From the NCBI GenBank assembly GCA_964016885.1, contig OZ024746.1, forward strand, positions 47,430,001 to 47,494,000: DNA of 64,000 nt. Direction: 5' to 3'. The translations under genes and the position numbers were made by a program. The notes beneath the pieces were generated by a model. That model worked only from the letters and a program-made list of their open reading frames with translations. It ran no database searches and was not told where the DNA came from. Of the stretch, positions 1,038 through 49,168 are shown one piece after another. This stretch comes from Eledone cirrhosa. Its lineage: Eukaryota. The stretch's first letter is position 1; each line of letters starts with the position of its first letter.

Positions 1038-3378
1038 TTATATATTGGGTTTAAAGTTTTGGAAGGAGTGCCGGAAGCGGTGCTGGCACGACGCAGTCAC
1101 TTCCAATTTTTTATTAAGTAGGTTATGGTTTGAGAAGATTATAGTATGGATCTCTAGTAGACAGAGGTTACAGAATATATTAGGTGGTTTGTACGATGCC
1201 GCCTTACCTATCACTTCCCATTTAAGTGTATAAGATCTATTTCTAGTTTTTAGATAGTGTATGTAGCTAGATAGTGAAGTGGAGTTGACTAGACTGTGTT
1301 TTTTGAAAGAATGGAGGTGTGAATTGTATCTGGTTTTGAAGCAGTTTGAAGTAGAGCCTATATAGGTTTCAGAAGAGTTGCTAGTTATGACAGTGCATGA
1401 GTATATGATGTCCTTGATTAAGCAGTTTTTATCTAAAGGGCTGGTTCTATTAGATCTACAGTTACAATTATTTTGGATGTTAACCTGCCGGTTATTATGT
1501 TGTGTAGAAGTCTGGTTGCTAGGTATTGTATTATGGCTATGGGGGTTGTCGCTCCCAGCGTTATTGATTTCACTAGTGCTATTACTATTATTACTATTGA
1601 TATCAGGGTTTGCATATATAACGTTGTTTTGAAGGTTTACCCCCTGTCGTGTTTTAGTTTGTTGGAAGTAAGTATTAATGTTTCTTTTATTGCTACTAGC
1701 TATGTGGTATGCTATGTTAGGCGTGGTAGAGTAGGAGATTTTAATGGTGTTTTTGTTTATAAGACTATGATACTTGTGGCCAGATAGGAAGTTTTTATCC
1801 AGGAGTGAGAAGAAAGCCTTAGGTAGGTTGGTAGAGACGTTTAGATTGAAAGTGGGGGGGGTGAAAAATGTATTATTTCTTCTATTTTTGTTTTTTATGT
1901 CTGCTGAGATGCTTCCGTTTATGGTATTTTGGTGACCTCCCTGGTGTGGGTTACGTTTGTTGCCACCCTTCGTACTAGTGTGTGTGTGGTTATTATTCTT
2001 ATTATTATTTTTCCTCATGGACATATTGTGCGAAATAATGTTGTAACTATGTGTTTTTGTAGGCAGGAACTCGATCTCATTATTATGGCCTGATCTAGCT
2101 AATGCCTGATTATAATATTGTGAGTTTTTGCTAAATATGTTTTCGTCATAAGATAGATTAGAAATTCTATTGGATATTCCCTTAGAGATAGAGTTTAATA
2201 TTGATCTAGGGTGGTTAGACTTGGTATCTACGTAAAGCAGTGTTTCGTTAGGTTTATGGAATGGTGTATATATCCTAGAGTCTAGGTAGGGGGTGGCATC
2301 TAGGAAGTTAACGTTTTTAGTGTTTTTGTCTATGGTGATACTTAGGTTATAGTTTTTGAAAGTCTTGTGCAATAGTTTTCTAGTTCTTTCTATATTAAAT
2401 TTTTTATAGTCTATAAGGAGAAGTGCATCATCGCGGTACAAACCACCGTTGAGGTATGGAAGGTCCTTATGGATTTCGTTTAGTAAGTATAGGCCCACCA
2501 AATCAGTGACCTGCGCCGAGTCACTAGATCCCATGGTTATGTCGAAGTTGTTATGCGTATCCTTGCGGGTCCATAACTGGTCTTCAAAAGTGATTACGGT
2601 TTTACGGGCCGCAAGTATGACATCAATCTGGGGTCTAGTCAGGTCACTATTGTTCATGGCCATAATTAGTGCCTTATTTAATAGGTTAGGGGAAATAGAG
2701 GTGTAGTATGAATTGATATCAAATTGAATAAATGTGTTATCTTTGTTTTCCTTGATATCCTTAAACCATTCAATAAATTCACCTGTATTTCCCCATTGTT
2801 TAAGGTATATTTTGTGTTTAATCTGTGGGATGATTTTATCTAAGATTTTCTTACTGATAATGCCAATATCAGACTTGGCAGGGCAGATTAGTCTAATGCA
2901 GATTAGTCTTAGGCAGATTGCTAATGAAATCCTCCTCATGGTGCTTCAGAGAGAACCTAGGGGGGTTTGGTGTGTATGGTTATGTATGTCTCTGAAGTCC
3001 TAGTTTGGACACTATACTACGGCCTTCTATATTAATTTCTTCTAAGTTTTTCATAGTAGTTTTCTTGAAGCTCTTATGTAGTTCATTATATATAAACTTT
3101 CTATATGTATTATAATCTAGGCTGCATATGTTATTAGTTTTGTCCGCATGCACAATAATTTTACTACTTGTGTTGAATTCATTAATAGAGGAGTTAAGTT
3201 TGTTTAAGAAGGTGTTGTTTTTATTACGATGCTTTTTGTATTTAATGTTCTTAACTAGTTTTATTAGGTCATTTTCAAAGGAGTTTAGTAGTGTTGTGAG
3301 GGGGGCTTCTAAAAGTTTTAAAGCCGAAGGAGTCGAATTTGTTAGTATTATCAACTTTGTTAGATTTGTTTTTATCAT
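1038..3378 (-). pseudogene. PLE reverse transcriptase-GIY-YIG endonuclease ORF, frameshifted near 2900-2980
   Basis: Motifs seen: ADKTNN, FIQFDINSYY, MGSSDSAQVTDLVG, GGLYRDD, NFLD, YVDTKSNHP, CNCR..PL..NC, IIYSC..TYIGST..FKTRY..H, C-terminal LLNKKLE. The ORF is split into 2980-3378 and 1038-2939, with a short tandem duplication (ggcagattagtct) near the break. Confidence 0.9.
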
Positions 3379-3570
3379 AATGGAATGTCCTCCATCTCAC
3401 TATAAATATATATATCTTTTGCTGAGCTATTTATCTTACTGGTAATAAGGTAGTAATAAATTACTGACCTTCACTGTTTAGGGTTTAAAATATACATAAC
3501 TATAAAAAGTTTTAGTATATACATAACCATAAATAGTATCCTTAATATTATATATATATATATATATATA

Positions 3571-8778: not shown

Positions 8779-9676
8779 AATATAATATAGATCAGTTTTA
8801 TAAATAAATATTGACATACCCTTAAAAAATGCAACCATTACTATATATATATAATGCTTAGATAGCAGAACGTATGTATAAAAAAACCACACCCGTAATG
8901 TGTATTACTTGTGACAGTATCTTGTTAGCTCAATGTACGAAAACAGAGCCGAAAACAAAGAGCGCTTATAACATCAATCAGAGCATTGAAAACAAAAATA
9001 CAATAATGAAGATAAACTCTACCGACCTACATCATAAGAACAATAGATATATGGTACAGGATCATAGGATAATAGTGAGAATGGAGATGATACATAATAA
9101 GGTTGTTAGTCAGAGTAAGGAAAAATAAAATAAACTGAAGTAATCACAGAGGAGATAGATGCATATGAAGGAATCAGTCAAGGCGATAAAGAAAAAAGAA
9201 AAAAGAAGGAATACTCAAAAATAATTAAAAAATTAATTAAAAAATTAAAAATTAAAAAATAAAAATAAAAATAATAAAAATAAAAAATAAAAAATAATAA
9301 TTATTAATTAAACAATAATTAAAAAATTAAAAAATTAATAAATTAAAAAATAATTAAAAAATATCTTTTTTAAAAATGTAAAAATATAAAAAAATATATA
9401 TATTAAAAAAATATAAAAAATATATTAAAAAATATATATATTAAAAAAATATAATAATAATTAAAAACAATTAAAAAATAAATAATTAAAAATAAAAAAA
9501 TAAATAAAATCGAAATTAAAAACTAATTAAAAAACTAATTAAAAAAATAATTAGAAAATATATATTTAACAAAATAATTAACAAGAGAGAGGGGGAGGCA
9601 TAGATGCATATGAGGGCACACAAACGCAAGGAGAGGAAGCATGCATCGGTCATCATTATTGTATTTTTGTTTTCAA

Positions 9677-9723
9677 CACTCTGATGAGTCCTACCCTATG
9701 TTATGTATGAAACACTGTCAGCG
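9677..9723 (+). ncRNA. Partly degenerate minimal type I hammerhead at the 3' end of an A-rich pLTR-like element (~8830-9768)
   Basis: cact-CTGATGA-g..t-GAAAC-act-GTC-agcg, followed by AATAAA, a T-rich tail and (TA)n. Stems I and II have mismatches. Confidence 0.55.
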
Positions 9724-10539
9724 AATAAAAATTGATTGATGTTATAAGCACTCTTTGTTTTCTCTTACTATATATACATATATATATATATAACGAAGGA
9801 GATGTGGTAAGGAACCAGGTGGACCATAACGCACCAAAGTACTCAATACTTAGGGTAGTAGAGTGGGTAATAGGAACGAGTAGGACCCCGGCGGCTGAGC
9901 TCAAGCCGTTTCGACGGCTAATTCTGGACTAAATGAAAAGTTTTATCCTGGTATATGAATAGCCGAGCTTCTCAGGGTGTAATTCCATATATGGTAAAAG
10001 TGATTGTCACAAGGATTGGTCAAAAGTTTGTTGTTGAGACACATAATTCTATCATGGCAATTTGTGGAAGGAAGGGGTAGCTGAACCTGCCAGTAGAAGA
10101 AAGAGGGAGAGGGAGTGGAAGAAACCCAGTAGTGCGTTATAGTGCCAACTACAGCAGGGCAGGAGGTCAAGCAAGTATACTAGGGAGGGGGAGAGGGAGG
10201 GGGAGGAAGTCGAAACAATAAGTAAATCAATATGGAGTAAATATATAGAAGAATACCAAGAATGTTAAAAATATAAAAAAACAATTTCTGGTTACTATTT
10301 CCTAACCACAGTCATCAAGTTTCTCACTGGTACTGCTAAGCTATAGAAAAGTTTACTAGGTGGGACGGAATTGTAGTGAGACCATTTTAAGAGTTAGTAG
10401 TAATCAACTAGTATATCTTACGGTGACAGGTCAACAAGTGGGGGGGGCCAAAATACTAAAGAAACTACCACGAAATAATAATTCAGATACCCGAAACTAA
10501 TACGAAATAATTGTTTCTACCCTAAGCACAAGGTCGCTG

Positions 10540-11935
10540 ATGGGCGAGACACTTGCGCCCATCACCGACCAGGAAAGAAACATCATCCTCCACGCCAGGA
10601 AGACAGTCCTACTTTTCGACAACTCCAAATGGATAAAGAGAGCTCCCGACTCACCTTTCGACGTCAGCATGGGCGCGACGGATTCGGCTGAGGTCACAAA
10701 TCTTATAGGATTATTCCTACTAGTTAAACTCATCGATATGTTTCCTGCATTCGGCGGTGGATTGTACCGTGATGATGGGCTCCTTACCCTTAAAGGGTAC
10801 AACCCCAGTAGTACAGACCGGGTCCGTAAACAATTAATCAGCTTCTTCCGCGACTTGGGATTTAAAATAATCCTACAAACGTCCCTGACTCGAGTAAACT
10901 TCCTGGACGTTACCCTTGACCTCGATAATTATCTGTACTACCCATACAGGAAACCCAACGACAACCTGCACTACATCCACCGCCGGTCAAACCATCCTAG
11001 GAACATCACCAATAACCTGCTTAAAAACATCTCCCTCCGCATATCTTGTTTGTCCGCTAATGAGCAGATATTCGAGGAACATGCGCCTTATTACAACCAG
11101 GCCCTCAAGCGGAGTGGCTTCCGGGAGGAAATATCCTACTGTCCAGCTTCCATTAGCGCAACCAGCAGGCGACACCGCCGCTCACGCAATGTAACATGGT
11201 TCAAACCTCCTCACAACGCCGAGGTGATAACTCCTATCGGGAAAATCTTCTTTAGGCTCATCGAAAAACACTTCCCACTACAACACCGCTACCACAACAT
11301 AATCAACAAAAATACCATCAAACTCTCCTACAGCACCACACCAAACTTTGCACAAACCATCGTCTCCTCTAACAACAAAAAAACTCAACCTCTATGGAAG
11401 AAATAACCTAAATAGCAGTTGAGAGCCGACCAGGAGGTGCAACTGTCCTGATGGATCCATTTGTCCCCTCGACAGCAGATGCAGAGATCGTAATGTGATC
11501 TACCAGTGCAACGTGAGGACGGACACCTCCAACAAAGCTTATATAGGATTAACCGCATGTGACTTCAAGACCCGGCTATACCAACACAGACATACTTTCC
11601 GAAACCCGGCCCGGCGTCACGCCACCACACTTTCGGGCCACATCTGGGACCTCAAAGATAACAATATTACCTATGATCTCACTTGGAGCTTACTGTCCAG
11701 AGCCAACTCTTACACCGGAGTACGCCGTCCGTGCAATTTATGCTCGGAGGAAACTTTACAAATGTTGTTTTCGACGGACCTAAACAAGAAAGACGAACTG
11801 GTAACTGCATGCAGACACAGATTGCGTAGGACTTACCTCGCCCACAAACCCCATAATGACCCGGGGGGGGTAGACAAGGGCTGTAACACCCCACTTGCCG
11901 ACTTTGTAATGGGTAACCCCTGCTTGCAAAGGTAG
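10540..11935 (+). pseudogene. Truncated and frameshifted PLE RT + GIY-YIG ORF
   Basis: FDVSMGATDSAEV, GGLYRDDGL, VNFLDVTLDL, YIHRRSNHP, then after a frameshift near 11400: CNCPDGSICPL, VIYQC..AYIGLT..FKTRLYQH, CNLCSEE, LNKKDE. Confidence 0.9.
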
Positions 11936-13712: not shown

Positions 13713-15555
13713 TTAGATGCAAAATTTTTGGAATGTTTTACATATTTTTACTGTTCCATTAATGGATCGTACTTGTTGTTTCCTAACTAGTTGTGTTCTT
13801 TCTGTTCCTGTGAAGCCTAGCTTCTCAAGATTTGTATTGAGGCAGTTACTAACATATCCCAGTGCCCCAATAATCACAGGCTTAAATCTGAAGGTGTAAT
13901 CAGGGTGGAGTATCTGCAGATTTCTCATCAGTTCTGCATAAATATTCTCCTTTTCACTAATCTTTGATATTATATTGGCATCTGCTGGGCAGCTAATTTT
14001 CACTACTGTGCATGTTTTCTTCTCCCTGTCCCATATCATAATATCTGGTCTGTTATGCCTGCATTTTATTGGGGTTTTTACTGGAACATTCCACCAGTAC
14101 TTTTTCATATTATGTACATGGATGTCTTCCACATTGTTGTAGCTTTTAATGTGTTTATTATCGGGGCTATCTTTTTTACGAACTGCATTGTACAGTGTTT
14201 TGGCCACTACATCATGCCTCATAGGTAGATAGTACTGCGATGACATCTTTGGGCAGCTGCTGATGACATGGGTGATATCCCCGATGTTAGTTCTGCAGAG
14301 TCTGCACTTGTTATCACATCTAGGTGTTTTGCCTGCATCCCTATCTCTTTTGTGAATCAGGTATTTCGTGCTAATCTCCTGTTCTTGGATTGCAAAAGCG
14401 TATCCTTCAAAGTGGGAGCCAATAGAGCGGTTGTTGGTCCAAGATAGACTACTTTCCTTATCTATATTACTCTGACTCTGGAGCTTCCTGGCAACATACC
14501 CATGCATGATTTTTTGCTGATAGGCATGCAGTTTTTCATCCATGGATTCACTGCGATACTGCTGAGCGACATCCCTGGGTGTGAGTTTTTGATTATCACA
14601 CAGGGAATATCTCTCAAGGAGTTCCTTCCCAACTCTCATGATCTTATCTGTTTCATGCAGATAGACTTGCTCGAGAAGCGGGCTCCTACACTTCGAGGTT
14701 CGTAGATGTTGTCGGAGAGATATGATGCGACATTCAAATGTTGTCTGGACTGATGTTAGGCCTCTGCTTCCCTGCTTACGTTTCAAGTAAAGGCGGTCTA
14801 TGTCACTGTTGATGTGGAAGTTTCCGGTGTTCAGTATTTTTCGAGTTCCAACATCAACTGCTCGGATTTCGTCTATCGTCCAATTGAGTATTCCAAACGT
14901 TGGTGTTAGGACAGGCACAGCAAACACATTGTGAGCCACTGTTTTGTTTTGCGCAGAGAGTTCCGATGACCAGATCTTTCTTAATCGGGTGTAGTATTCC
15001 CTGGTTACGCGTTCTTTATTACAGATACCATTATAGGATATGTTCTCATCTATCCCCAGATATCTGTAGCAGTCCTCATCAGATATCGGTGAAACAGTTA
15101 GACCATTGATGACAATGTTGCTAGATTGGGTTGTTGTTTTCCCCCGCTTTACAGTCATGTATGAGCATTTATCTTGGCCAAACTCCATTCCTATATCCTT
15201 TGAGAACGTTGTAACCCGGTCAAGATTTTTCTTCATCCCTTCCATGTTCTTGGCATAGAGTTTCAGATCGTCCACAAAGACGTTATGGGTTAGGTTCGTA
15301 TTTCTGTCCTCCTGTGAGCCAATGATGTATCCCTCACATTTCTTGAGCAGAAAGGACAAGGAGTTTAATGACAAGATGAACAATATAACAGAGAGACTGT
15401 CCCCCTCAAATATACCCCTGCAATATTTTATTTTATCAGTGAAAATAGAGTCCTCCCTCTCTGTCTTTAACCTTAGGATAGTAGCCCAGAAGAAGACAGC
15501 CTCTCTATGGCTCTGACAATAATGTCTGGGACTTTAGCAAGTTGGAGGGCCTCTA
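13713..15555 (-). mobile_element. 5'-truncated non-LTR retrotransposon with RT and restriction-like endonuclease (R4/Dong-like)
   Basis: GIFEGDSLS, FVDDLKL, YRYLG, CCHC knuckle CRLC..HVISSC, RHD, RPDIMIWD, KENIY, PVIIGALG. The 556-aa ORF spans 13713-15383 and sits in TA/TATG microsatellite. Clade assignment is from motif recall. Confidence 0.85.
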
Positions 15556-16722: not shown

Positions 16723-16765
16723 ACATTGCTGACGATAGCTAATAAGCTTGAAACTAGTACAGCGT
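16723..16765 (+). ncRNA. Type I hammerhead in a diverged copy (~16400-16970) of the ~470-bp element family
   Basis: acattg-CTGACGA-T-AGCT-aata-AGCT-T-GAAAC-ta-GTA-cagcgt. Confidence 0.75.
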
Positions 16766-21950: not shown

Positions 21951-21997
<47 letters not shown>

Positions 21998-22003
<6 letters not shown>

Positions 22004-25000
22004 GATCGAGTATCGAAAAATCGGCGCACGAGTTCACGATAAACGAAATTCGATATGAGCGGCAGAGGGCTCAATAATTCAGATGAATCAGAGCTATAAC
22101 TATCGTTAAAATACCGTCACATATAGAACAAGTCTACAATCAACCATACGATTTAAAATCGATAAAGGAAGATTCGGGCCAAACAGATAAAAAATATCAA
22201 TAAAACAATACGTCAATAATTTAAATGAATGTAAAATCATACCCGGACCCACTAGACAGGTGTTAAATCTAGCTTCATGGGTTTCTGTAAATCCTTAGAC
22301 TGTACTCTATCAGCTCACATATAAATATAAAAGCCTACTAGAGCAAGTGGAACGGAGGTTTACGTTATCAACGAGTTTTTTCCTGGCGGCAGAGGAGCCA
22401 ACTACCAGTGAAAAACGCACATGGCATTAGACAAGGGAGATGACCCCTATATCCGCGAAAACAATTCGAGTGAATGTGGAAATACACATATCGAATTAGA
22501 GTGCTCAATAGACATGTTAAAATAAAACAAAAGCTATTCATCACTCAATAGAATCGACAAAAAATGAGCAATAAAATTAACTGGTGGATAGCTATGTCCA
22601 GAGCTAAATATATTAGAAAGATCGAGTATCGAAAAATCGGCGCACGAGTTCACGATAAACGAAATTCGATATGAGCGGCAGAGGGCTCAATGATTCAGAT
22701 GAATCAGAGCTATAACTATCGTTAAAATACCGTCACATATAGAACAAGTCTACAATCAACCATACGATTTAAAATCGATAAAGGAAGATTCGGGCCAAAC
22801 AGATAAAAAATATCAATAAAACAATACGTCAATAATTTAAATGAATGTAAAATCATACCCGGACCCACTAGACAGGTGTTAAATCTAGCTTCATGGGTTT
22901 CTGTAAATCCTTAGACTGTACTCTATCAGCTCACATATAAATATAAAAGCCTACTAGAGCAAGTGGAACGGAGGTTTACGTTATCAACGAGTTTTTTCCT
23001 GGCGGCAGAGGAGCCAACTACCAGTGAAAAACGCACATGGCATTAGACAAGGGAGATGACCCCTATATCCGCGAAAACAATTCGAGTGAATGTGGAAATA
23101 CACATATCGAATTAGAGTGCTCAATAGACATGTTAAAATAAAACAAAAGCTATTCATCACTCAATAGAATCGACAAAAAATGAGCAATAAAATTAACTGG
23201 TGGATAGCTATGTCCAGAGCTAAATATATTAGAAAGATCGAGTATCGAAAAATCGGCGCACGAGTTCACGATAAACGAAATTCGATATGAGCGGCAGAGG
23301 GCTCAATAATTCAGATGAATCAGAGCTATAACTATCGTTAAAATACCGTCACATATAGAACAAGTCTACAATCAACCATACGATTTAAAATCGATAAAGG
23401 AAGATTCGGGCCAAACAGATAAAAAATATCAATAAAACAATACGTCAATAATTTAAATGAATGTAAAATCATACCCGGACCCACTAGACAGGTGTTAAAT
23501 CTAGCTTCATGGGTTTCTGTAAATCCTTAGACTGTACTCTATCAGCTCACATATAAATATAAAAGCCTACTAGAGCAAGTGGAACGGAGGTTTACGTTAT
23601 CAACGAGTTTTTTCCTGGCGGCAGAGGAGCCAACTACCAGTGAAAAACGCACATGGCATTAGACAAGGGAGATGACCCCTATATCCGCGAAAACAATTCG
23701 AGTGAATGTGGAAATACACATATCGAATTAGAGTGCTCAATAGACATGTTAAAATAAAACAAAAGCTATTCATCACTCAATAGAATCGACAAAAAATGAG
23801 CAATAAAATTAACTGGTGGATAGCTATGTCCAGAGCTAAATATATTAGAAAGATCGAGTATCGAAAAATCGGCGCACGAGTTCACGATAAACGAAATTCG
23901 ATATGAGCGGCAGAGGGCTCAATGATTCAGATGAATCAGAGCTATAACTATCGTTAAAATACCGTCACATATAGAACAAGTCTACAATCAACCATACGAT
24001 TTAAAATCGATAAAGGAAGATTCGGGCCAAACAGATAAAAAATATCAATAAAACAATACGTCAATAATTTAAATGAATGTAAAATCATACCCGGACCCAC
24101 TAGACAGGTGTTAAATCTAGCTTCATGGGTTTCTGTAAATCCTTAGACTGTACTCTATCAGCTCACATATAAATATAAAAGCCTACTAGAGCAAGTGGAA
24201 CGGAGGTTTACGTTATCAACGAGTTTTTTCCTGGCGGCAGAGGAGCCAACTACCAGTGAAAAACGCACATGGCATTAGACAAGGGAGATGACCCCTATAT
24301 CCGCGAAAACAATTCGAGTGAATGTGGAAATACACATATCGAATTAGAGTGCTCAATAGACATGTTAAAATAAAACAAAAGCTATTCATCACTCAATAGA
24401 ATCGACAAAAAATGAGCAATAAAATTAACTGGTGGATAGCTATGTCCAGAGCTAAATATATTAGAAAGATCGAGTATCGAAAAATCGGCGCACGAGTTCA
24501 CGATAAACGAAATTCGATATGAGCGGCAGAGGGCTCAATAATTCAGATGAATCAGAGCTATAACTATCGTTAAAATACCGTCACATATAGAACAAGTCTA
24601 CAATCAACCATACGATTTAAAATCGATAAAGGAAGATTCGGGCCAAACAGATAAAAAATATCAATAAAACAATACGTCAATAATTTAAATGAATGTAAAA
24701 TCATACCCGGACCCACTAGACAGGTGTTAAATCTAGCTTCATGGGTTTCTGTAAATCCTTAGACTGTACTCTATCAGCTCACATATAAATATAAAAGCCT
24801 ACTAGAGCAAGTGGAACGGAGGTTTACGTTATCAACGAGTTTTTTCCTGGCGGCAGAGGAGCCAACTACCAGTGAAAAACGCACATGGCATTAGACAAGG
24901 GAGATGACCCCTATATCCGCGAAAACAATTCGAGTGAATGTGGAAATACACATATCGAATTAGAGTGCTCAATAGACATGTTAAAATAAAACAAAAGCTA

Positions 25001-28000
25001 TTCATCACTCAATAGAATCGACAAAAAATGAGCAATAAAATTAACTGGTGGATAGCTATGTCCAGAGCTAAATATATTAGAAAGATCGAGTATCGAAAAA
25101 TCGGCGCACGAGTTCACGATAAACGAAATTCGATATGAGCGGCAGAGGGCTCAATGATTCAGATGAATCAGAGCTATAACTATCGTTAAAATACCGTCAC
25201 ATATAGAACAAGTCTACAATCAACCATACGATTTAAAATCGATAAAGGAAGATTCGGGCCAAACAGATAAAAAATATCAATAAAACAATACGTCAATAAT
25301 TTAAATGAATGTAAAATCATACCCGGACCCACTAGACAGGTGTTAAATCTAGCTTCATGGGTTTCTGTAAATCCTTAGACTGTACTCTATCAGCTCACAT
25401 ATAAATATAAAAGCCTACTAGAGCAAGTGGAACGGAGGTTTACGTTATCAACGAGTTTTTTCCTGGCGGCAGAGGAGCCAACTACCAGTGAAAAACGCAC
25501 ATGGCATTAGACAAGGGAGATGACCCCTATATCCGCGAAAACAATTCGAGTGAATGTGGAAATACACATATCGAATTAGAGTGCTCAATAGACATGTTAA
25601 AATAAAACAAAAGCTATTCATCACTCAATAGAATCGACAAAAAATGAGCAATAAAATTAACTGGTGGATAGCTATGTCCAGAGCTAAATATATTAGAAAG
25701 ATCGAGTATCGAAAAATCGGCGCACGAGTTCACGATAAACGAAATTCGATATGAGCGGCAGAGGGCTCAATGATTCAGATGAATCAGAGCTATAACTATC
25801 GTTAAAATACCGTCACATATAGAACAAGTCTACAATCAACCATACGATTTAAAATCGATAAAGGAAGATTCGGGCCAAACAGATAAAAAATATCAATAAA
25901 ACAATACGTCAATAATTTAAATGAATGTAAAATCATACCCGGACCCACTAGACAGGTGTTAAATCTAGCTTCATGGGTTTCTGTAAATCCTTAGACTGTA
26001 CTCTATCAGCTCACATATAAATATAAAAGCCTACTAGAGCAAGTGGAACGGAGGTTTACGTTATCAACGAGTTTTTTCCTGGCGGCAGAGGAGCCAACTA
26101 CCAGTGAAAAACGCACATGGCATTAGACAAGGGAGATGACCCCTATATCCGCGAAAACAATTCGAGTGAATGTGGAAATACACATATCGAATTAGAGTGC
26201 TCAATAGACATGTTAAAATAAAACAAAAGCTATTCATCACTCAATAGAATCGACAAAAAATGAGCAATAAAATTAACTGGTGGATAGCTATGTCCAGAGC
26301 TAAATATATTAGAAAGATCGAGTATCGAAAAATCGGCGCACGAGTTCACGATAAACGAAATTCGATATGAGCGGCAGAGGGCTCAATAATTCAGATGAAT
26401 CAGAGCTATAACTATCGTTAAAATACCGTCACATATAGAACAAGTCTACAATCAACCATACGATTTAAAATCGATAAAGGAAGATTCGGGCCAAACAGAT
26501 AAAAAATATCAATAAAACAATACGTCAATAATTTAAATGAATGTAAAATCATACCCGGACCCACTAGACAGGTGTTAAATCTAGCTTCATGGGTTTCTGT
26601 AAATCCTTAGACTGTACTCTATCAGCTCACATATAAATATAAAAGCCTACTAGAGCAAGTGGAACGGAGGTTTACGTTATCAACGAGTTTTTTCCTGGCG
26701 GCAGAGGAGCCAACTACCAGTGAAAAACGCACATGGCATTAGACAAGGGAGATGACCCCTATATCCGCGAAAACAATTCGAGTGAATGTGGAAATACACA
26801 TATCGAATTAGAGTGCTCAATAGACATGTTAAAATAAAACAAAAGCTATTCATCACTCAATAGAATCGACAAAAAATGAGCAATAAAATTAACTGGTGGA
26901 TAGCTATGTCCAGAGCTAAATATATTAGAAAGATCGAGTATCGAAAAATCGGCGCACGAGTTCACGATAAACGAAATTCGATATGAGCGGCAGAGGGCTC
27001 AATAATTCAGATGAATCAGAGCTATAACTATCGTTAAAATACCGTCACATATAGAACAAGTCTACAATCAACCATACGATTTAAAATCGATAAAGGAAGA
27101 TTCGGGCCAAACAGATAAAAAATATCAATAAAACAATACGTCAATAATTTAAATGAATGTAAAATCATACCCGGACCCACTAGAAAGGTGTTAAATCTAG
27201 CTTCATGGGTTTCTGTAAATCCTTAGACTGTACTCTATCAGCTCACATATAAATATAAAAGCCTACTAGAGCAAGTGGAACGGAGGTTTACGTTATCAAC
27301 GAGTTTTTTCCTGGCGGCAGAGGAGCCAACTACCAGTGAAAAACGCACATGGCATTAGACAAGGGAGATGACCCCTATATCCGCGAAAACAATTCGAGTG
27401 AATGTGGAAATACACATATCGAATTAGAGTGCTCAATAGACATGTTAAAATAAAACAAAAGCTATTCATCACTCAATAGAATCGACAAAAAATGAGCAAT
27501 AAAATTAACTGGTGGATAGCTATGTCCAGAGCTAAATATATTAGAAAGATCGAGTATCGAAAAATCGGCGCACGAGTTCACGATAAACGAAATTCGATAT
27601 GAGCGGCAGAGGGCTCAATGATTCAGATGAATCAGAGCTATAACTATCGTTAAAATACCGTCACATATAGAACAAGTCTACAATCAACCATACGATTTAA
27701 AATCGATAAAGGAAGATTCGGGCCAAACAGATAAAAAATATCAATAAAACAATACGTCAATAATTTAAATGAATGTAAAATCATACCCGGACCCACTAGA
27801 CAGGTGTTAAATCTAGCTTCATGGGTTTCTGTAAATCCTTAGACTGTACTCTATCAGCTCACATATAAATATAAAAGCCTACTAGAGCAAGTGGAACGGA
27901 GGTTTACGTTATCAACGAGTTTTTTCCTGGCGGCAGAGGAGCCAACTACCAGTGAAAAACGCACATGGCATTAGACAAGGGAGATGACCCCTATATCCGC

Positions 28001-30262
28001 GAAAACAATTCGAGTGAATGTGGAAATACACATATCGAATTAGAGTGCTCAATAGACATGTTAAAATAAAACAAAAGCTATTCATCACTCAATAGAATCG
28101 ACAAAAAATGAGCAATAAAATTAACTGGTGGATAGCTATGTCCAGAGCTAAATATATTAGAAAGATCGAGTATCGAAAAATTGGCGCACGAGTTCACGAT
28201 AAACGAAATTCGATATGAGCGGCAGAGGGCTCAATAATTCAGATGAATCAGAGCTATAACTATCGTTAAAATACCGTCACATATAGAACAAGTCTACAAT
28301 CAACCATACGATTTAAAATCGATAAAGGAAGATTCGGGCCAAACAGATAAAAAATATCAATAAAACAATACGTCAATAATTTAAATGAATGTAAAATCAT
28401 ACCCGGACCCACTAGACAGGTGTTAAATCTAGCTTCATGGGTTTCTGTAAATCCTTAGACTGTACTCTATCAGCTCACATATAAATATAAAAGCCTACTA
28501 GAGCAAGTGGAACGGAGGTTTACGTTATCAACGAGTTTTTTCCTGGCGGCAGAGGAGCCAACTACCAGTGAAAAACGCACATGGCATTAGACAAGGGAGA
28601 TGACCCCTATATCCGCGAAAACAATTCGAGTGAATGTGGAAATACACATATCGAATTAGAGTGCTCAATAGACATGTTAAAATAAAACAAAAGCTATTCA
28701 TCACTCAATAGAATCGACAAAAAATGAGCAATAAAATTAACTGGTGGATAGCTATGTCCAGAGCTAAATATATTAGAAAGATCGAGTATCGAAAAATCGG
28801 CGCACGAGTTCACGATAAACGAAATTCGATATGAGCGGCAGAGGGCTCAATAATTCAGATGAATCAGAGCTATAACTATCGTTAAAATACCGTCACATAT
28901 AGAACAAGTCTACAATCAACCATACGATTTAAAATCGATAAAGGAAGATTCGGGCCAAACAGATAAAAAATATCAATAAAACAATACGTCAATAATTTAA
29001 ATGAATGTAAAATCATACCCGGACCCACTAGACAGGTGTTAAATCTAGCTTCATGGGTTTCTGTAAATCCTTAGACTGTACTCTATCAGCTCACATATAA
29101 ATATAAAAGCCTACTAGAGCAAGTGGAACGGAGGTTTACGTCATCAACGAGTTTTTTCCTGGCGGCAGAGGAGCCAACTACCAGTGAAAAACGCACATGG
29201 CATTAGACAAGGGAGATGACCCCTATATCCGCGAAAACAATTCGAGTGAATGTGGAAATACACATATCGAATTAGAGTGCTCAATAGACATGTTAAAATA
29301 AAACAAAAGCTATTCATCACTCAATAGAATCGACAAAAAATGAGCAATAAAATTAACTGGTGGATAGCTATGTCCAGAGCTAAATATATTAGAAAGATCG
29401 AGTATCGAAAAATCGGCGCACGAGTTCACGATAAACGAAATTCGATATGAGCGGCAGAGGGCTCAATAATTCAGATGAATCAGAGCTATAACTATCGTTA
29501 AAATACCGTCACATATAGAACAAGTCTACAATCAACCATACGATTTAAAATCGATGAAGGAAGATTCGGGCCAAACAGATAAAAAATATCAATAAAACAA
29601 TACGTCAATAATTTAAATGAATGTAAAATCATACCCGGACCCACTAGACAGGTGTTAAATCTAGCTTCATGGGTTTCTGTAAATCCTTAGACTGTACTCT
29701 ATCAGCTCACATATAAATATAAAAGCCTACTAGAGCAAGTGGAACGGAGGTTTACGTTATCAACGAGTTTTTTCCTGGCGGCAGAGGAGCCAACTACCAG
29801 TGAAAAACGCACATGGCATTAGACAAGGGAGATGACCCCTATATCCGCGAAAACAATTCGAGTGAATGTGGAAATACACATATCGAATTAGAGTGCTCAA
29901 TAGACATGTTAAAATAAAACAAAAGCTATTCATCACTCAATAGAATCGACAAAAAATGAGCAATAAAATTAACTGGTGGATAGCTATGTCCAGAGCTAAA
30001 TATATTAGAAAGATCGAGTATCGAAAAATCGGCGCACGAGTTCACGATAAACGAAATTCGATATGAGCGGCAGAGGGCTCAATAATTCAGATGAATCAGA
30101 GCTATAACTATCGTTAAAATACCGTCACATATAGAACAAGTCTACAATCAACCATACGATTTAAAATCGATAAAGGAAGATTCGGGCCAAACAGATAAAA
30201 AATATCAATAAAACAATACGTCAATAATTTAAATGAATGTAAAATCATACCCGGACCCACTA

Positions 30263-30266
<4 letters not shown>
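21998..30266 (-). repeat. Tandem array of a 616-bp unit (~13.4 near-identical copies) inserted in (TA)n; retrozyme-like
   Basis: aaagatcgag recurs at 22001, 22617, 23233 ... 30009. Only a few SNPs separate the units, there is no ORF, and each unit has one variant hammerhead on the minus strand. Confidence 0.97.
22241..22376 (-). ncRNA. U3-A8 variant type I hammerhead with giant stem II (first of 13 copies, period 616)
   Basis: ACUCG-UUGAUAA-C-GUAAA-CCU..60 nt..AGG-A-UUUAC-A-GAAA-CCCA..CUAGA..UCUAG-UGGG-UC/CGGGU. All three helices pair around the core, and the triplet is GUC. Confidence 0.72.
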
Positions 30267-33168: not shown

Positions 33169-33219
<51 letters not shown>

Positions 33220-33321
33220 CGTTTTTGAAATTGTTTTGCGAGATTTCTTATCTGAAAACGTGTGTTGAAACAGATATTGTAACATGACCCGCCGAAAGTA
33301 TATATATATATATATATATAT

Positions 33322-33437
33322 AAGTTGAAAAATGAAAACGAAATTTCATTTCTCACTCTTAGTATGGCACTTACTTAAATGTAAGTATGTATGTATGTAT
33401 ACGTACATACATATATGTATACAGACGTACAGTAGCA

Positions 33438-33514
<77 letters not shown>

Positions 33515-33952
33515 GCATACAGGTACACATACATATATGCACGCATCAGTTTAGCCGACGTTTATTATAACGCCTGCTTTGTTCGTTTGTTTGTCAACAA
33601 ATCGAACAGCCTGAATTTATGCCATACGTTGTTAAGGCAACCACGTCACCTTTTTGTTCAACACTGACACAGGAAGGATGTACTAGTTTCAAGCTTGTTA
33701 GCTATCATCAGCACCGTTTACCCATCTGCCAGATAGTTGAACGTTCGAAAGTATATACTTTCCTTATGAAAATTAACGGCTGAGCAGCCTAATTTGCATA
33801 TTGAGTGAGTTAAATCGGTCAGGCATACCGAAAACGATAAGTTGAAAAAAATGAAAACGAAATTTCATTTCTCACTCTTAGTATGGCACTTACTTAAATG
33901 TAAGTATGTATGTATACGTACATACATATATGTATACAGACGTACAGTAGCA

Positions 33953-34042
<90 letters not shown>

Positions 34043-34530
34043 TATACACATATGCATACAGGTACACATACATATATGCACGCATCAGTTTAGCCGACGT
34101 TTATTATAACGCCTGCTTTGTTCGTTTGTTTGTCAACAAATCGAACAGCCTGAATTTATGCCATACGGTGTTAAGAGTGAGAAATGAAATTTCGTTTTCA
34201 TTTTTTTTCAACTTATCGTTTTCGGTATGCCTGACCGATTTAACTCACTCAATATGCAAATTAGGCTGCTCAGCCGTTAATTTTCATAAGGAAAGTATAT
34301 ACTTTCGAACGTTCAACTATCTGGCAGATGGGTAAACGGTGCTGATGATAGCTAACAAGCTTGAAACTAGTACATCGTTCCTGTGTCAGTGTTGAACAAA
34401 AAGGTGACGTGGTTGCCTTAAAACCGTATGGCATAAATTCAGGCTGTTCGATTTGTTGACGAACAAAGCAGGCGTTATAATAAACGTCGGCTAAACTGAT
34501 GCGTGCATATATGTATGTGTACCTGTATGC

Positions 34531-34571
<41 letters not shown>

Positions 34572-35020
34572 TGCTACTGTACGTCTGTATACATATATGT
34601 ATGTACGTATACATACATACTTACATTTAAGTAAGTGCCATACTAAGAGTGAGAAATGAAATTTCGCTTTCATTTTTTTCAACTTATCGTTTTCGGTATG
34701 CCTGACCGATTTAACTCACTCAATATGCAAATTAGGCTGCTCAGCCGTTAATTTTCATAAGGAAAGTATATACTTTCGAACGTTCAACTATCTGGCAGAT
34801 GGGTAAACGGTGCTGATGATAACTAACAAGCTTGAAACTAGTACATCGTTCCTGTGTCAGTGTTGAACAAAAAGGTGACGTGGTTGCCTTAACACCGTAT
34901 GGCATAAATTCAGGCTGTTCGATTTGTTGACGAACAAACGAACAAAGCTGGCGTTATAATAAACGTCGGCTAAACTGATGCGTGCATATATGTATGTGTA
35001 CCTGTATGCATATGTGTATA

Positions 35021-35116
<96 letters not shown>

Positions 35117-35170
35117 TGCTACTGTACGTCTGTATACATATATGTATGTACGTATACATACATACTTACA
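33322..35170 (+). mobile_element. Tandem + inverted array of a ~470-520-bp hammerhead-bearing unit with an internal (TA)n tract
   Basis: The left arm (33322-34172) is inverted relative to the right arm. HHRs lie at 33674-33718 (-), 34335-34379 (+) and 34806-34850 (+). Confidence 0.9.
34335..34379 (+). ncRNA. Type I hammerhead ribozyme
   Basis: AACGGUG-CUGAUGA-U-AGCU-aaca-AGCU-U-GAAAC-ua-GUA-CAUCGUU. Stem I is 7 bp, and stem III is the palindrome ACUAGU. Confidence 0.9.
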
Positions 35171-35189
35171 TATATATATATATATATAT

Positions 35190-37964
35190 AAATTGGAATA
35201 AATGCTCTGAAATAGCGATATATATGTGAATATAGACATAGAATATTCGAAAATATTCTGTATGTTTATAATAAACATTTTGAAGACCTAATCGCTATAG
35301 AATAGAATACGTCACGTATTACAATTAGATTCTCGATAAAAGCAAGGGAAGTAATCTACGCGTTTCATTCTTGTTAGAAATCATCAGGACTACATATCCA
35401 GTGCTTTTATCGAGAATGACACAGCTAGAGACTTATAGAATACTTAGCTGTGTACAGGAACTGGTTTGAAAGAGCGGTTGCCGGTCCGGCAGAAATTAGA
35501 AATTGGAATAAATGCTCTGAAATAGCGATATATATGTGAATATAGACATAGAATATTCGAAAATATTCTGTATGTTTATAATAAACATTTTGAAGACCTA
35601 ATCGCTATAGAATAGAATACGTCACGTATTACAATTAGATTCTCGATAAAAGCAAGGGAAGTAATCTACGCGTTTCATTCTTGTTAGAAATCATCAGGAC
35701 TACATATCCAGTGCTTTTATCGAGAATGACACAGCTAGAGACTTATAGAATACTTAGCTGTGTACAGGAACTGGTTTGAAAGAGCGGTTGCCGGTCCGGC
35801 AGAAATTAGAAATTGGAATAAATGCTCTGAAATAGCGAATTTCTGCCGGACCGGCAACCGCTCTTTCAAACCAGTTCCTGTACACAGCTAAGTATTCTAT
35901 AAGTCTCTAGCTGTGTCATTCTCGATAAAAGCACTGGATATGTAGTCCTGATGATTTCTAACAAGAATGAAACGCGTAGATTACTTCCCTTGCTTTTATC
36001 GAGAATCTAATTGTAATACGTGACGTATTCTATTCTATAGCGATTAGGTCTTCAAAATGTTTATTATAAACATACAGAATATTTTCGAATATTCTATGTC
36101 TATATTCACATATATATCGCTATTTCAGAGCATTTATTCCAATTTCTAATTTCTGCCGGACCGGCAACCGCTCTTTCAAACCAGTTCCTGTACACAGCTA
36201 AGTATTCTATAAGTCTCTAGCTGTGTCATTCTCGATAAAAGCACTGGATATGTAGTCCTGATGATTTCTAACAAGAATGAAACGCGTAGATTACTTCCCT
36301 TGCTTTTATCGAGAATCTAATTGTAATACGTGACGTATTCTATTCTATAGCGATTAGGTCTTCAAAATGTTTATTATAAACATACAGAATATTTTCGAAT
36401 ATTCTATGTCTATATTCACATATATATCGCTATTTCAGAGCATTTATTCCAATTTCTAATTTCTGCCGGACCGGCAACCGCTCTTTCAAACCAGTTCCTG
36501 TACACAGCTAAGTATTCTATAAGTCTCTAGCTGTGTCATTCTCGATAAAAGCACTGGATATGTAGTCCTGATGATTTCTAACAAGAATGAAACGCGTAGA
36601 TTACTTCCCTTGCTTTTATCGAGAATCTAATTGTAATACGTGACGTATTCTATTCTATAGCGATTAGGTCTTCAAAATGTTTATTATAAACATACAGAAT
36701 ATTTTTGAATATTCTATGTCTATATTCACATATATATCGCTATTTCAGAGCATTTATTCCAATTTCTAATTTCTGCCGGACCGGCAACCGCTCTTTCAAA
36801 CCAGTTCCTGTACACAGCTAAGTATTCTATAAGTCTCTAGCTGTGTCATTCTCGATAAAAGCACTGGATATGTAGTCCTGATGATTTCTAACAAGAATGA
36901 AACGCGTAGATTACTTCCCTTGCTTTTATCGAGAATCTAATTGTAATACGTGACGTATTCTATTCTATAGCGATTAGGTCTTCAAAATGTTTATTATAAA
37001 CATACAGAATATTTTCGAATATTCTATGTCTATATTCACATATATATCGCTATTTCAGAGCATTTATTCCAATTTCTAATTTCTGCCGGACCGGCAACCG
37101 CTCTTTCAAACCAGTTCCTGTACACAGCTAAGTATTCTATAAGTCTCTAGCTGTGTCATTCTCGATAAAAGCACTGGATATGTAGTCCTGATGATTTCTA
37201 ACAAGAATGAAACGCGTAGATTACTTCCCTTGCTTTTATCGAGAATCTAATTGTAATACGTGACGTATTCTATTCTATAGCGATTAGGTCTTCAAAATGT
37301 TTATTATAAACATACAGAATATTTTCGAATATTCTATGTCTATATTCACATATATATCGCTATTTCAGAGCATTTATTCCAATTTCTAATTTCTGCCGGA
37401 CCGGCAACCGCTCTTTCAAACCAGTTCCTGTACACAGCTAAGTATTCTATAAGTCTCTAGCTGTGTCATTCTCGATAAAAGCACTGGATATGTAGTCCTG
37501 ATGATTTCTAACAAGAATGAAACGCGTAGATTACTTCCCTTGCTTTTATCGAGAATCTAATTGTAATACGTGACGTATTCTATTCTATAGCGATTAGGTC
37601 TTCAAAATGTTTATTATAAACATACAGAATATTTTCGAATATTCTATGTCTATATTCACATATATATCGCTATTTCAGAGCATTTATTCCAATTTCTAAT
37701 TTCTGCCGGACCGGCAACCGCTCTTTCAAACCAGTTCCTGTACACAGCTAAGTATTCTATAAGTCTCTAGCTGTGTCATTCTCGATAAAAGCACTGGATA
37801 TGTAGTCCTGATGATTTCTAACAAGAATGAAACGCGTAGATTACTTCCCTTGCTTTTATCGAGAATCTAATTGTAATACGTGACGTATTCTATTCTATAG
37901 CGATTAGGTCTTCAAAATGTTTATTATAAACATACAGAATATTTTCGAATATTCTATGTCTATA

Positions 37965-37969
<5 letters not shown>
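35190..37969 (+). mobile_element. Non-LTR retrozyme-like array: 310-bp unit, ~2 inverted + ~7 direct copies, in (TA)n
   Basis: Period 310 (aattggaata at 35191, 35501, 35811), inversion junction near 35837, and one hammerhead per unit. Confidence 0.93.
35942..35984 (+). ncRNA. Type I hammerhead ribozyme (also at 36252, 36562, 36872, 37182, 37492, 37802; minus copies at 35351-35393 and 35661-35703)
   Basis: GUAGUC-CUGAUGA-U-UUCU-aaca-AGAA-U-GAAAC-gc-GUA-GAUUAC. Stem III is the palindrome ACGCGU, and stem I is extended by the 16-bp helix AUUCUCGAUAAAAGCA/UGCUUUUAUCGAGAAU. Confidence 0.92.
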
Positions 37970-38017
<48 letters not shown>

Positions 38018-38025
38018 ATAAATTA

Positions 38026-38065
<40 letters not shown>

Positions 38066-38116
38066 GAAGAGTGAAGAATAACATGGTCAACAGTACAAAA
38101 AGGGTTTTACTTACAG

Positions 38117-38218
38117 TATTAACAATTGTTTCATTGATTAGGATGTCAAAAGATTGCTAATCACTCGAAGTTGTGTCACCCAATCTTAAATACAGTATAT
38201 TCCTAATCAAATCATCAT
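38117..38218 (-). ncRNA. Hammerhead with long stem II, 5'-truncated at the core by an inversion
   Basis: (A)UGAUGA-U-UUGAUUAGGA..UCCUAAUCAA-U-GAAAC-aauu-GUU. The fold-back junction is near 38219, and the 5' arm of stem I is lost. Confidence 0.65.
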
Positions 38219-38341
38219 TCCGATGATTTGATTAGGCATATACTGTATTTATATATATATACTTTCGGCGGGTCATGTTTCAATATCTGATTCAACATAC
38301 GTTTTCAGATAAGAAATCTCGCAAAACAATTTCAAAAACGA

Positions 38342-38412
<71 letters not shown>

Positions 38413-38415
<3 letters not shown>

Positions 38416-38775
38416 AAAAAGAGATGAAATCGAAAATGCAACTGGAGTCTTATTTTTTTTTTAAATATATATATTTATTTGGTTCCTTTACCGGTTTCGC
38501 AGTTCTTCTGCTTTTCAAAAGGTGAGTTGAGATGGAGGGTCTGTGGTTTTTCTCACATCTGATGTGAGAAAAACCACAGACCCTCCATCTCAACTCACCT
38601 TTTGAAAAGCAGAAGAACTGCGAAACCGGTAACGGAACCAAATAAATATATATATATTTTTTTTAAATAAGACTCCAGTTGCATTTTCGATTTCATCTCT
38701 TTTTCTTTATACTTTCACTCGTGTAGGACACCTCGGTTATTTTTCATTTTGTAAAAAAAAACCTCACTTTCTAAT
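38413..38775 (+). mobile_element. Fold-back pLTR element with two U3-A8 hammerheads (38485-38522 minus, 38598-38635 plus)
   Basis: Near-perfect ~145-bp-arm palindrome centred near 38560. Motif CCUU-UUGAAAA-GCAG-aagaa-CUGC-GAAAC-cg-GUA-AAGG. The element ends ctttctaa(ta)n. Confidence 0.85.
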
Positions 38776-46246: not shown

Positions 46247-47807
46247 CTGGATAAAAGGAAAATATGAAAGATGTGAAAGTTTAGTCTGTATTACATAGGA
46301 AAAGAAAAGATTTACCCAAGAGGTTCTCACTAACTCATCCTATGCATTGTTGGGTCTGCTTTCACAACTTCCATCTACTGAGATTTCTCTGCACCTCTTT
46401 ATACAGTTGTCTTCTTCCATACACATCACAAATCTATACCAACATAATCTTCTCTCTGGAACACTACATCCATAAAATGACAATCTTCCTAGTGTTTGGT
46501 GATCAACATGATAAATGCACCCAGCACACTCTGTAAAGAGGTTGGTGACAGAAACAGCATCCAACTGTAGCAAACTTGCCAAAAAGAAGGGTCTGAAGGA
46601 TTCTTCACCTGTGTCAATGACATCATCCTAGTGCGATAATAAGATGCACTCAGGGGATCATGGGAACATTTTGTAAGTGAGCTGCAGGCTCCTGGAAGAG
46701 CTGCAGGCTCTCGGAAGAGTGAAAGAACAAGTGAGATGTAGGCTCCTGGCCCATCTGAGAGATCAGTAGCTTCACTGTGTACTGATTTGGTCTGTGATAA
46801 CCCACCCAACCCTTGCTAACAGGGAAAACAGACATTGAATAATGATGATGATGATGATGAAGATGAAGGGACAGTAAGCATGACTTTTGCAGTCCATCGA
46901 AGAGCAATATGATTGATATGGTTAATATTCAAATTGAACATCTGTAAGCTGACATCTGCAGAAACATCATTAAAGGTTGAAATTCTAACAAAAATTTACT
47001 GCCATTATTTTTTAATTATCAAAATAATCAACTGTTTGAACAATTTAGTGAAATAACTAACTTTTAATTTAAAAGACAAATATTCAACTACTGAAATATA
47101 TTATCTGGTATGTAATACTAAGATAGTCCACTTTAACAGAGGCAGCTTTTGGTGGGTTGGTATTTAAACCGGCTGTATCTGGCCAGAATTCTCCCACCTA
47201 TTTCTGTTCAAACCAGCCATAACTGGCTGCTCATACTGATATTAAGGTATTTCCAGAGAGACCTGCCTATATGCAAATTGTAAATGATATATAATAAATA
47301 GAATCGTTAGTTTATATATAATAAATAATATAATATATACTATATATAAATATATATTATATATTTTTATTTTACTATATTTATATATAATATGTATCAT
47401 TTGATATCTAACATACTATTATATCATCTCTACCATCCCCTTATGCTGCAGTGACCCCTAGACATTCTCAACGCGCCCTGAGGAACGGTAGCACCCACTT
47501 TGTGAACCTTTGCACAATACATAGCTATACATACACTGAACATTGCTATCTTGTTAGTACTTTATCATATTTTATATCATGGGTAGTTTACTGCAGCAAC
47601 TAAATATTTAGAATGCTGAAGTTAAATATCAGATATGTAAACGATATTGTAACTTTTCGCAATATCAATCTCCATTCACAGACAGTTTTTGCAATATCCA
47701 CACCTACATGAGGTTTCAATTGGTCTGCTTTTTAACAGAAACTTAGTGTAGGTGTAAATATTAATATTTATATCTCCAAATATGAGGTTGACATAAAAAA
47801 AAAAATG

Positions 47808-49168
47808 CTCTCATACACAACAGTTAATCATCTGGTTAATGTCTCTCATAAGCAACTGTTTGCCATCTGGCTAACATCTCTCATACACAACAGTTAATCA
47901 TCTGGTTAATGTCTCTCATAAGCAACTGTTTGCCATCTGGTTAATGTCTCTCATAAGCAACTGTTTGCCATCTGGCTAATATCTCTCATATACAACAGTT
48001 AATCATCTGATTAATGTCTCTCATAAGCAACTGTTTGCCATCTGGCTAATATCTCTCATATACAACAGTTAATCATCTGGTTAATGTCTCTCATAAGCAA
48101 CTGTTTGCCATCTGGCTAATATCTCTCATATACAACAGTTAATCATCTGGTTAATGTCTCTCATATACAACAGTTAATCATCTGGTTAATGTCTCTCATA
48201 AGCAACTGTTTGCCATCTGGTTAACATCTCTCATATACAACTGTTAATCATCTGGTTAATGTCTCTCATAAGCAACTGTTTGCCATCTGGCTAACATCTC
48301 TCATATACAACTGTTAATCATCTGGTTCATGTCTCTCATAAGCAACTGTTTGCCATCTGGCTAACATCTCTCATACACAACAGTTAATCATCTGATAATG
48401 TCTCTCAAAAGCAACTGTTTGCCATCTGGCTAACATCTCTCATATACAACTGTTAATCATCTGGTTCATGTCTCTCATAAGCAACTGTTTGCCATCTGGC
48501 TAACATCTCTCATATACAACAGTTAATCATCTGGTTAATGTCTCTCATAAGCAACTGTTTGCCATCTGGCTAACATCTCTCATACACAACAGTTAATCAT
48601 CTGGTTAATGTCTCTCATAAGCAACTGTTTGCCATCTGGCTAACATCTCTCATATACAATAGTTAATCATCTGGTTAATGTCTCTCATAAGCAACTGTTT
48701 GCCATCTGGCTAACATCTCTCATATACAACTGTTAATCATCTGGTTAATGTCTCTCATAAGCAACTGTTTGCCATCTGGCTAACATCTCTCATATACAAC
48801 TGTTAATCATCTGGTTAATGTCTCTCATAAGCAACTGTTTACCATCTGGCTAACATCTCTCATACACAACAGTTAATCATCTGGTTAATGTCTCTCATAA
48901 GCAACTGTTTGCCATCTGGCTAACATCTCTCATATACAACAGTTAATCATCTGGTTAATGTCTCTCATAAGCAACTGTTTGCCATCTGGCTAACATCTCT
49001 CATACACAACTGTTAATCATATGGTTCATGTTTCTCATAAGCAACTGTTTGCCATCTGGCTAACATCTCTCATATACAACAGTTAATCATCTGGTTAATG
49101 TCTCTCATAAGCAACTGTTTGCCATCTGGCTAACATCTCTCATATACAACTGTTAATCATATGGTTAA
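47808..49168. repeat. Minisatellite: two 35-bp subunit types mostly alternating as a 70-bp dimer
   Basis: tctctcatayacaacwgttaatcatctggttaatg and tctctcataagcaactgtttgccatctggctaaca, about 39 subunits, in HADH intron 6. Confidence 0.95.

Follow-up and report, generated by a model that had tools for sequence, protein, structure and literature searches.

Hammerhead ribozymes are described with a canonical geometry in which helix I has 6 bp, helix II has four positions and helix III is short and palindromic (PMC4209133). At position 10.1-11.1 of helix II the consensus pair is G10.1-C11.1, and U10.1·U11.1 is a rare natural variant, reported to be the mismatch that this position tolerates best and the one that leaves the ribozyme most active (Perreault et al. 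2011, PMC3088659). In the axolotl, helix II has a U·U at its base in about 60,000 retrozyme motifs, those of the HHR_Amex2 type (Cervera and de la Pena 2020, PMC7229834; the preprint agrees); these are reported to show 22% cleavage in one hour as monomers and much more as dimers, and the supplement of the paper includes motifs from mussel and other invertebrates. Newts and the axolotl motif Amex1 have a helix III of one pair closed by a palindromic tetraloop (PMC7229834). Retrozymes have been linked to Penelope elements, and cleavage in vitro is reported for one of nine Xenopus retrozyme dimers (bioRxiv 10.64898/2026.07.22.740005). Penelope-like elements themselves leave a footprint that is inverted, one-tailed and targeted to microsatellites (PMC8557442, PMC11167929).

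How does a locus of Eledone cirrhosa compare with these systems? In the window, by which we mean the whole stretch of 64,000 nucleotides that was analysed, the pattern CTGATGA-N10-40-GAAAC has 13 matches where 0.28 are expected: three belong to a family A, nine to a family B, and one at 9681 is unrelated. The family A hammerhead reads ACGGUG-CUGAUGA-U-AGC-UAACAA-GCU-U-GAA-ACUAGU-A-CAUCGU-U, and that of family B reads GUAGUC-CUGAUGA-U-UUC-UAACAA-GAA-U-GAA-ACGCGU-A-GAUUAC-U. The cores, U10.1, U11.1 and the palindromes ACUAGU (A) and ACGCGU (B) were found where a sequence-only reading of this DNA had placed them. At 9675-9722 lies a degenerate hammerhead-like motif in which 10.1-11.1 is G·U, the helix II region is longer and helix III reads ACACUGU. 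A motif scan of metagenomes returned no matches.

The family A hammerhead at 34336..34379 (+) is supported by the pattern, by alignment to the Rfam family HH9 (RF02275) and by covariation. Its core lies at 34342-48 and its helix I at 34336-41/34373-78; helix II comprises U10.1 at 34349, the strands AGC/GCU, the loop UAACAA at 34353-58 and U11.1 at 34362. The palindrome ACUAGU of helix III is at 34366-71, the cut is predicted after A17 at 34372, and U1.7 is at 34379. The second hammerhead of this plus arm (34807..34850, core 34813) has a G>A change at 10.3 that breaks the 10.3-11.3 pair, and the inverted arm holds a pattern match on the minus strand at 33675..33717 (core start 33711). An older family A hammerhead, in a diverged copy, lies at 16729..16759 (+) and has CUGACGA, U·U and an AAUA loop. 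The first family B hammerhead of the plus arm, at 35942..35985, has a helix I (35942-47/35979-84) extended into a 16-bp stem (z = -5.8), followed by U10.1 at 35955, UUC/GAA with the loop UAACAA, and U11.1 at 35968; ACGCGU lies at 35972-77, with the predicted cut after A17 at 35978 and U1.7 at 35985. By pattern, identical family B cores are found at 36258, 36568, 36878, 37188, 37498 and 37808 (+), and two on the minus strand have their 5' ends at 35387 and 35697.

The type I core (CUGANGA, GAAA and UH) is present in both families. The consensus G10.1-C11.1 is absent and replaced by U·U; since this is a published natural exception, the missing pair does not bar A and B from the type I hammerheads. 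Helices I to III covary, helix I is open in A and B, and it takes a dimer to complete helix III. The U that opens the helix I bulge is the same in 12 of 12 subfamily representatives, as is U1.7, which in all 12 directly follows the 6-bp helix I. The last loop A and U1.7, the nucleotides of a tertiary contact, are present by sequence in A and B, and they may pair as in the Schistosoma structure, where U1.7 makes a Hoogsteen pair with the final A of the loop (PMC11875169). A whole-window Rfam scan gave 116 matches at E values up to 1, none of them a hammerhead; small-window scans gave two HH9 matches of 19.2 and 18.5 bits, below the threshold of 52. A and B resemble the Schistosoma type and HH9 in the 6-bp helix I, the four-position helix II, the six-nucleotide loop ending in A, the bulge and U1.7, but have U·U for G-C and a helix III cut down to a six-nucleotide palindrome.

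The sequence-only reading had described helix II as a 4-bp stem closed by an AACA loop. This parse does not hold: the fourth pair, U-A, never covaries, and HH9 places it inside a six-nucleotide loop. Among 14 representatives, positions 10.2-10.4 are paired in all and covary, while 10.1-11.1 is paired in six; the fourth position is U-A in 12 and an unpaired C·A in the two rows of a further family, D. In the small-window Rfam matches, UAACAA is aligned to the six-base HH9 loop CAAAAA, and within helix II only 10.1-11.1 is flagged. A five-pair helix II (U·U plus 4 bp) was considered and ruled out, the fourth pair being without covariation. Judged from the sequences, helix II of A and B is thus the U·U, three pairs and a six-base loop, UAA(C/U)AA. 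Nor is AACA fixed, as AAUA subfamilies are common. From the loop alignment, the 6-bp helix I and U1.7 it follows that the geometry is the canonical one; as read from sequence, the loop UAA(C/U)AA with U1.7 is an ordinary Schistosoma/HH9-like design.

The compensatory changes that had been noticed between A and B were borne out in an alignment of 12 hand-picked subfamily representatives: 93.6% of cells are paired, both sides have changed in 10 of the 13 pairs, and slid controls are only 27-44% paired. Because the rows are kin to one another, they stand for about four lineages rather than 12 events. The two units are also as dissimilar outside the hammerhead as had been claimed, with a local score between their bodies of 21 against a shuffle mean of 19.5 and maximum of 30. 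A common ancestry of the A and B bodies was accordingly ruled out, and their sole similarity is the hammerhead itself, 26-29 nt at 83-88% identity.

Does the palindromic helix III favour dimers, as had been proposed? The proposal fits the covariation, the energy model and the literature. The centre of helix III is self-complementary (UA, GC or AU) in 12 of 12 representatives. Since a 2-bp helix III would leave a loop of two nucleotides, the lone motif should consist of one pair and a palindromic tetraloop, as in Amex1 and the newts; HHR_Amex2, by contrast, has a 2-bp helix III and a tetraloop (PMC7229834). When two-copy transcripts were folded under constraint, the double hammerhead lay 4.7-11.8 kcal/mol below two single hammerheads in five of five subfamilies, and 6-13 kcal/mol above the free minimum fold of the same transcripts. 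In a circular monomer of family B, helix II has a pairing probability of 0.15, compared with 0.32 for C·A. These constrained-folding energies support dimeric cutting as a predicted mode.

In the 3.0-Gb genome, the pattern U-N4-AACA-N4-U has 15,963 matches (control 0), and the broader census pattern CTGANGA-N5-AAYAA-N4-GAAAC-N3-TH has 53,139 (control 1). The census counts units, many of them in arrays, and the copy numbers reflect a few amplification bursts and not independent events. By subtraction, 37,553 matches, or about 71%, are U·U. Rarity of U·U among genomic copies had been set beforehand as the test of the sequence-only reading, and the result is the contrary. A G-C pair occurs in 9,537 matches with the same UAA(C/U)AA-type loop, and 5,511 have A or C at 10.1, including 1,271 with C·A. 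G10.1 opposite a base other than C (278 matches) and U10.1 opposite a base other than U (260) are scarce by comparison. A tighter pattern finds 3,959 copies of family B with A-U. Conversely, U·U occurs beyond the AACA loop: with AAUA, with CAAACA in family D, and with a long helix II in the third family described below. The distinct subtype that had been proposed, joining U·U to a 4-bp stem and an AACA loop, therefore finds no support, as the three features are not exclusive to one another and subfamilies with G-C, A-U or C·A carry this loop too. U·U is nonetheless neither rare nor decayed; it is constrained, since it is the majority state and is found with three helix II sequences in two unrelated retrozyme lineages, and in a Penelope terminal repeat as well. 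It is recurrent and preferred, but not required.

The states at 10.1-11.1 can be set against the relationships of the families. Family C, which has G-C, is homologous to A in its body (65-67% over ~250 nt; score 94 against a shuffle maximum of 30) and is young, with arrays of 30 or more units. In a midpoint-rooted tree of 55 of the 134 distinct A/C segments, which does not thereby fix the ancestral state, C (100/100) stands apart from an A clade in which young U·U copies, older U·U copies and C·A copies form subclades. The commonest A-U unit of family B is 99% identical to a U·U unit, from which it differs at 10.1-11.1 by one base, and A-U units form perfect arrays at many loci. On sequence comparison the A-U state in family B is probably derived, because the more diverged B variants seen carry U·U. 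Family D has 404 matches against a control of 5, with U·U built into the search pattern; its loop is CAAACA or CAACCA, its helix III is a non-palindromic 3-bp helix, and its flanks are homologous to those of B (median score 61.5, shuffle maximum 29). A route from G-C to U·U through CpG decay was also considered: in an old G10.1 family, position 11.1 is U in 19, C in 8, A in 5 and G in 2 of 34 copies counted by hand, and in young family C there is no excess of U at 11.1 among the G10.1·not-C matches listed.

Several arrays show further variation. A young A-U sublineage of B (loci L144 and L146, on contig C1) has a one-base insertion just past the cut site that bulges helix I, and its arrays are still perfect. 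A family C array (contig C1:14044535-14051131) has units with a palindromic helix III irregularly alternating with a non-palindromic ACUCGU variant. In two family B arrays, all units listed (6 and 11) have G10.1·U11.1 (L150; contig C2:315864076-315867248), which suggests that a rare variant was copied from a single template. In sequencing runs X1-X6, labelled as four organisms and four studies, a fraction of 0.96-1.00 of family B words is present, and family B is a single 340-base contig in three of four contig sets of unknown kind.

The units of A and B have the hallmarks of non-LTR retrozymes: they are tandem, each carries a type I hammerhead, the GC content is ~33%, and they are without protein; an ORF search at a minimum of 120 aa found only a low-complexity frame. 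Family A units, of ~466-502 bp (~470-480 bp in the window insertion), are slightly longer than the range of 150-450 bp quoted for non-LTR retrozymes, and have an internal (TA)n; (TA)n also flanks the insertion. The family A insertion at 33320..35171 consists of a minus arm from ~34175 to 33320, the long end, and a plus arm from ~34172 to 35171, a short end that was read by eye. The family B insertion at 35190..37977, sited in (TA)n, has 310-bp units and nine hammerheads; one arm has 2.1 inverted units (35190-35838, long end 35190) and the other, joined to it back to back, has 6.9 units and the short end (35838-37977). A pair of inverted repeats, 33174-33321 and 38238-38388 (94.7%), encloses the A, B and third-family insertions, which suggests that an older two-armed element received all three as nested insertions in its (TA)n centre.

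These inverted arms are not peculiar to the window. Both orientations occur in 25 of 56 clusters, and all 25 are back to back; cluster coordinates come from the matches listed (84 and 62 of 100 each, in two listings), with interior units of long arrays left out. Among 41 two-armed cases (40 hand-picked regions and the window), nine were unscorable, and each of the 32 scorable insertions pairs a short end with a long one; almost all of them border on (TA)n or AT-rich DNA. An assembly artefact was ruled out as the source of the inversions, given how stereotyped their orientation and end positions are. In three of 13 family B arrays (L146, L148 and L150), array-specific changes are found in every scored unit of both arms, which is consistent with copying from one template. 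A and B thus show the features of mobilisation by Penelope-like enzymes: an inverted, 5'-truncated arm, a one-sided tail and a microsatellite target. Families A, B and C resemble Penelope-like elements in their tandem and inverted arms, one-sided tail and (TA)n targets, but the tails of A (~60 nt) and C (~70 nt) are longer than the published 30-40 bp, and A and B encode no protein. For the axolotl elements, the word 'inverted' is absent from the main text of the paper (PMC7229834). HHR_Amex2, in the element Rtz353, is a close counterpart in that both are non-LTR retrozymes whose helix II has U·U at its base, the equation of the axolotl U·U with 10.1-11.1 being our inference from the text.

The window holds other elements besides. 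Two broken retrotransposon frames, at 1038-3396 (-) and 10501-11935 (+), look Penelope-like, presumably encoding reverse transcriptase (RT) and GIY-YIG motifs; we take them as such from their motifs together with mutual tblastn matches, and a Pfam search found no family in any of three window ORFs. The second frame overlaps one arm of an inverted repeat (9870-10533/12461-13095). A 606-aa frame at 13713-15533 (-) resembles the RT of a non-LTR retrotransposon, apparently followed by a restriction-like nuclease at the C-terminus. A 616-bp tandem array of ~13.4 copies with 99.7-99.8% identity lies between (TA)n runs at 21989-30266; it has no standard hammerhead pattern and no Rfam match, and could be a further retrozyme-like element that carries some other ribozyme. 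A near-perfect (93%) palindrome of 300 bp, with (TA)n on one side, is present at 38408-38711, and a 35/70-bp minisatellite of ~39 copies at 47804-49168.

What is the third family? The sequence-only reading had grouped it with A and B for its U·U and palindrome; both are real, but it shares nothing else with A and B, as it has a long helix II and mostly a CCGAUGA core. Of 2,278 candidates in a DNA search, 40 were scored and yielded 70 matches; 30 loci were taken, and U·U is found in 33 of 33 distinct copies, whose cores are CCGAUGA (19), CUGAUGA (4) or damaged (10). The architecture comprises a long helix II on a 9-bp base, a short helix I, ACAAUUGU and U17. The window copy at 38062..38218 (-) is truncated, with U10.1 at 38211, the long helix II and GAAAC-AAUU-GU-U; it is split by an inversion at ~38218, lacks the 5' strand of helix I, and departs from the type I core with AUGAUGA. 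An inverted stub at 38220..38251 (+) has CCGAUGA, U10.1 and the beginning of helix II. At two loci (L062 and L064) a frame similar to the last part of the window retrotransposon ORF (E 2.5e-7 and 1.3e-5) lies ~600 bp upstream of the family, and for this reason the family is identified, from sequence, as a putative Penelope terminal-repeat hammerhead. Families A and B have no match to the window copy. The hammerheads described in Penelope elements are similar in their long helix II, short helix I, palindromic helix III and site downstream of the endonuclease C-terminus, but there G10.1-C11.1 is reported as highly conserved, whereas the third family has U·U (PMC4209133).

A literature search by title and start of abstract, with most subscription papers outside its reach, found no paper describing these families. 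A and B are new families of the known class of non-LTR retrozymes, and their U·U variant is already published: the mismatch and its position are the same as in the variant of Perreault et al. (PMC3088659), which is described there as rare but is here the majority state across several families. The explanation that we favour, and hold to be probable, is that A and B are type I hammerheads in non-LTR retrozymes likely copied by Penelope-like enzymes, and that U·U is likely the best-tolerated substitute for G-C and marks no separate subtype. Sister repeats have spread with G-C, A-U or C·A, and U·U is published; it is thus likely one tolerated option and not a new type of ribozyme. Under this explanation, the loop-terminal A would contact U1.7 and prop a weak helix II, so that any of G-C, U·U, A-U or C·A at 10.1-11.1 would allow enough cutting for propagation. 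A lone motif would have a helix III of 1 bp only; in a multimeric transcript the palindromes of two tandem copies would pair with each other, and the resulting double hammerhead would cut after GUA. A host ligase would circularise the freed monomer, and a Penelope RT-endonuclease would reverse-transcribe the circle again and again, starting from two fixed sites.

Several points strain the tolerance reading. U·U is about four times as frequent as G-C and turns up in lineages that are not related, which is more than pure tolerance obviously predicts. The active folds lie above the predicted minimum, eight of nine Xenopus dimers are reported not to cut in vitro, and the tails of A and C are longer than those published. 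Could U·U instead be positively selected as a brake, which together with a 1-bp helix III makes cutting strictly dependent on dimers or protein, so that monomer circles survive, and which has been adopted repeatedly in Penelope-mobilised RNAs? Its prevalence (~71% of matches), its retention while all three neighbouring pairs differ between B and D, and its presence in the unrelated A lineage and in all 33 third-family copies would fit such a role, as would reports that a Penelope hammerhead is protein-assisted (PMC11167929) and that half of axolotl retrozymes are marked by U·U (PMC7229834). We nevertheless doubt it. A one-base change to A-U has reached 3,959 copies, family C, with its G-C pair, is young and has arrays of at least 30 units, and family D joins U·U to a non-palindromic 3-bp helix III. 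Moreover, the axolotl U·U motif is reported to cleave to 22% as a monomer against 6% for the other axolotl motif, although helix III differs too (PMC7229834).

Shared descent would account for the resemblance of A and B differently, by a single hammerhead module inherited by or swapped between two unrelated bodies, with C later regaining G-C. That the hammerhead is the only A-B similarity, and that loop and bulge are near-identical in A, B and C, speak for it. But A and B differ in all pairs of helix I and in two of the three of helix II, and loop and bulge resemble the HH9 consensus, so that constraint alone explains what the three families share; U·U also occurs in the different architecture of the third family, and the midpoint-rooted tree does not fix the ancestral state. 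On this evidence descent from one module seems distinctly improbable. It is harder still to believe that the hammerheads are now inert passengers, with U·U and C·A as fixed defects in repeats that spread without cutting. The amplification of C·A to 1,271 copies, the U4C change in most third-family cores and the difference between active and minimum-energy folds could be read in this way, but the core is invariant, the helices covary strongly across subfamilies, and U·U is reported as more active than any other mismatch (PMC3088659).

Tolerance by an otherwise canonical ribozyme thus remains our preferred reading. More speculatively, and in our judgement improbably, U10.1·U11.1 might be a tuning mutation that was selected repeatedly, in this one genome by three or more unrelated lineages and also in the axolotl, with slower, dimer- or RT-dependent cutting protecting the circular template. 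If this were true, G-C, U·U, A-U and C·A would form a natural fitness series for the most conserved helix pair of the hammerhead. Descriptors that require G10.1-C11.1, or any pair there, would miss most such hammerheads in this genome. The co-amplified subfamilies, including the U·U and A-U pair one base apart, constitute an allelic series for the cleavage needed by a spreading retrozyme, and the insertions add evidence for Penelope enzymes mobilising animal retrozymes.
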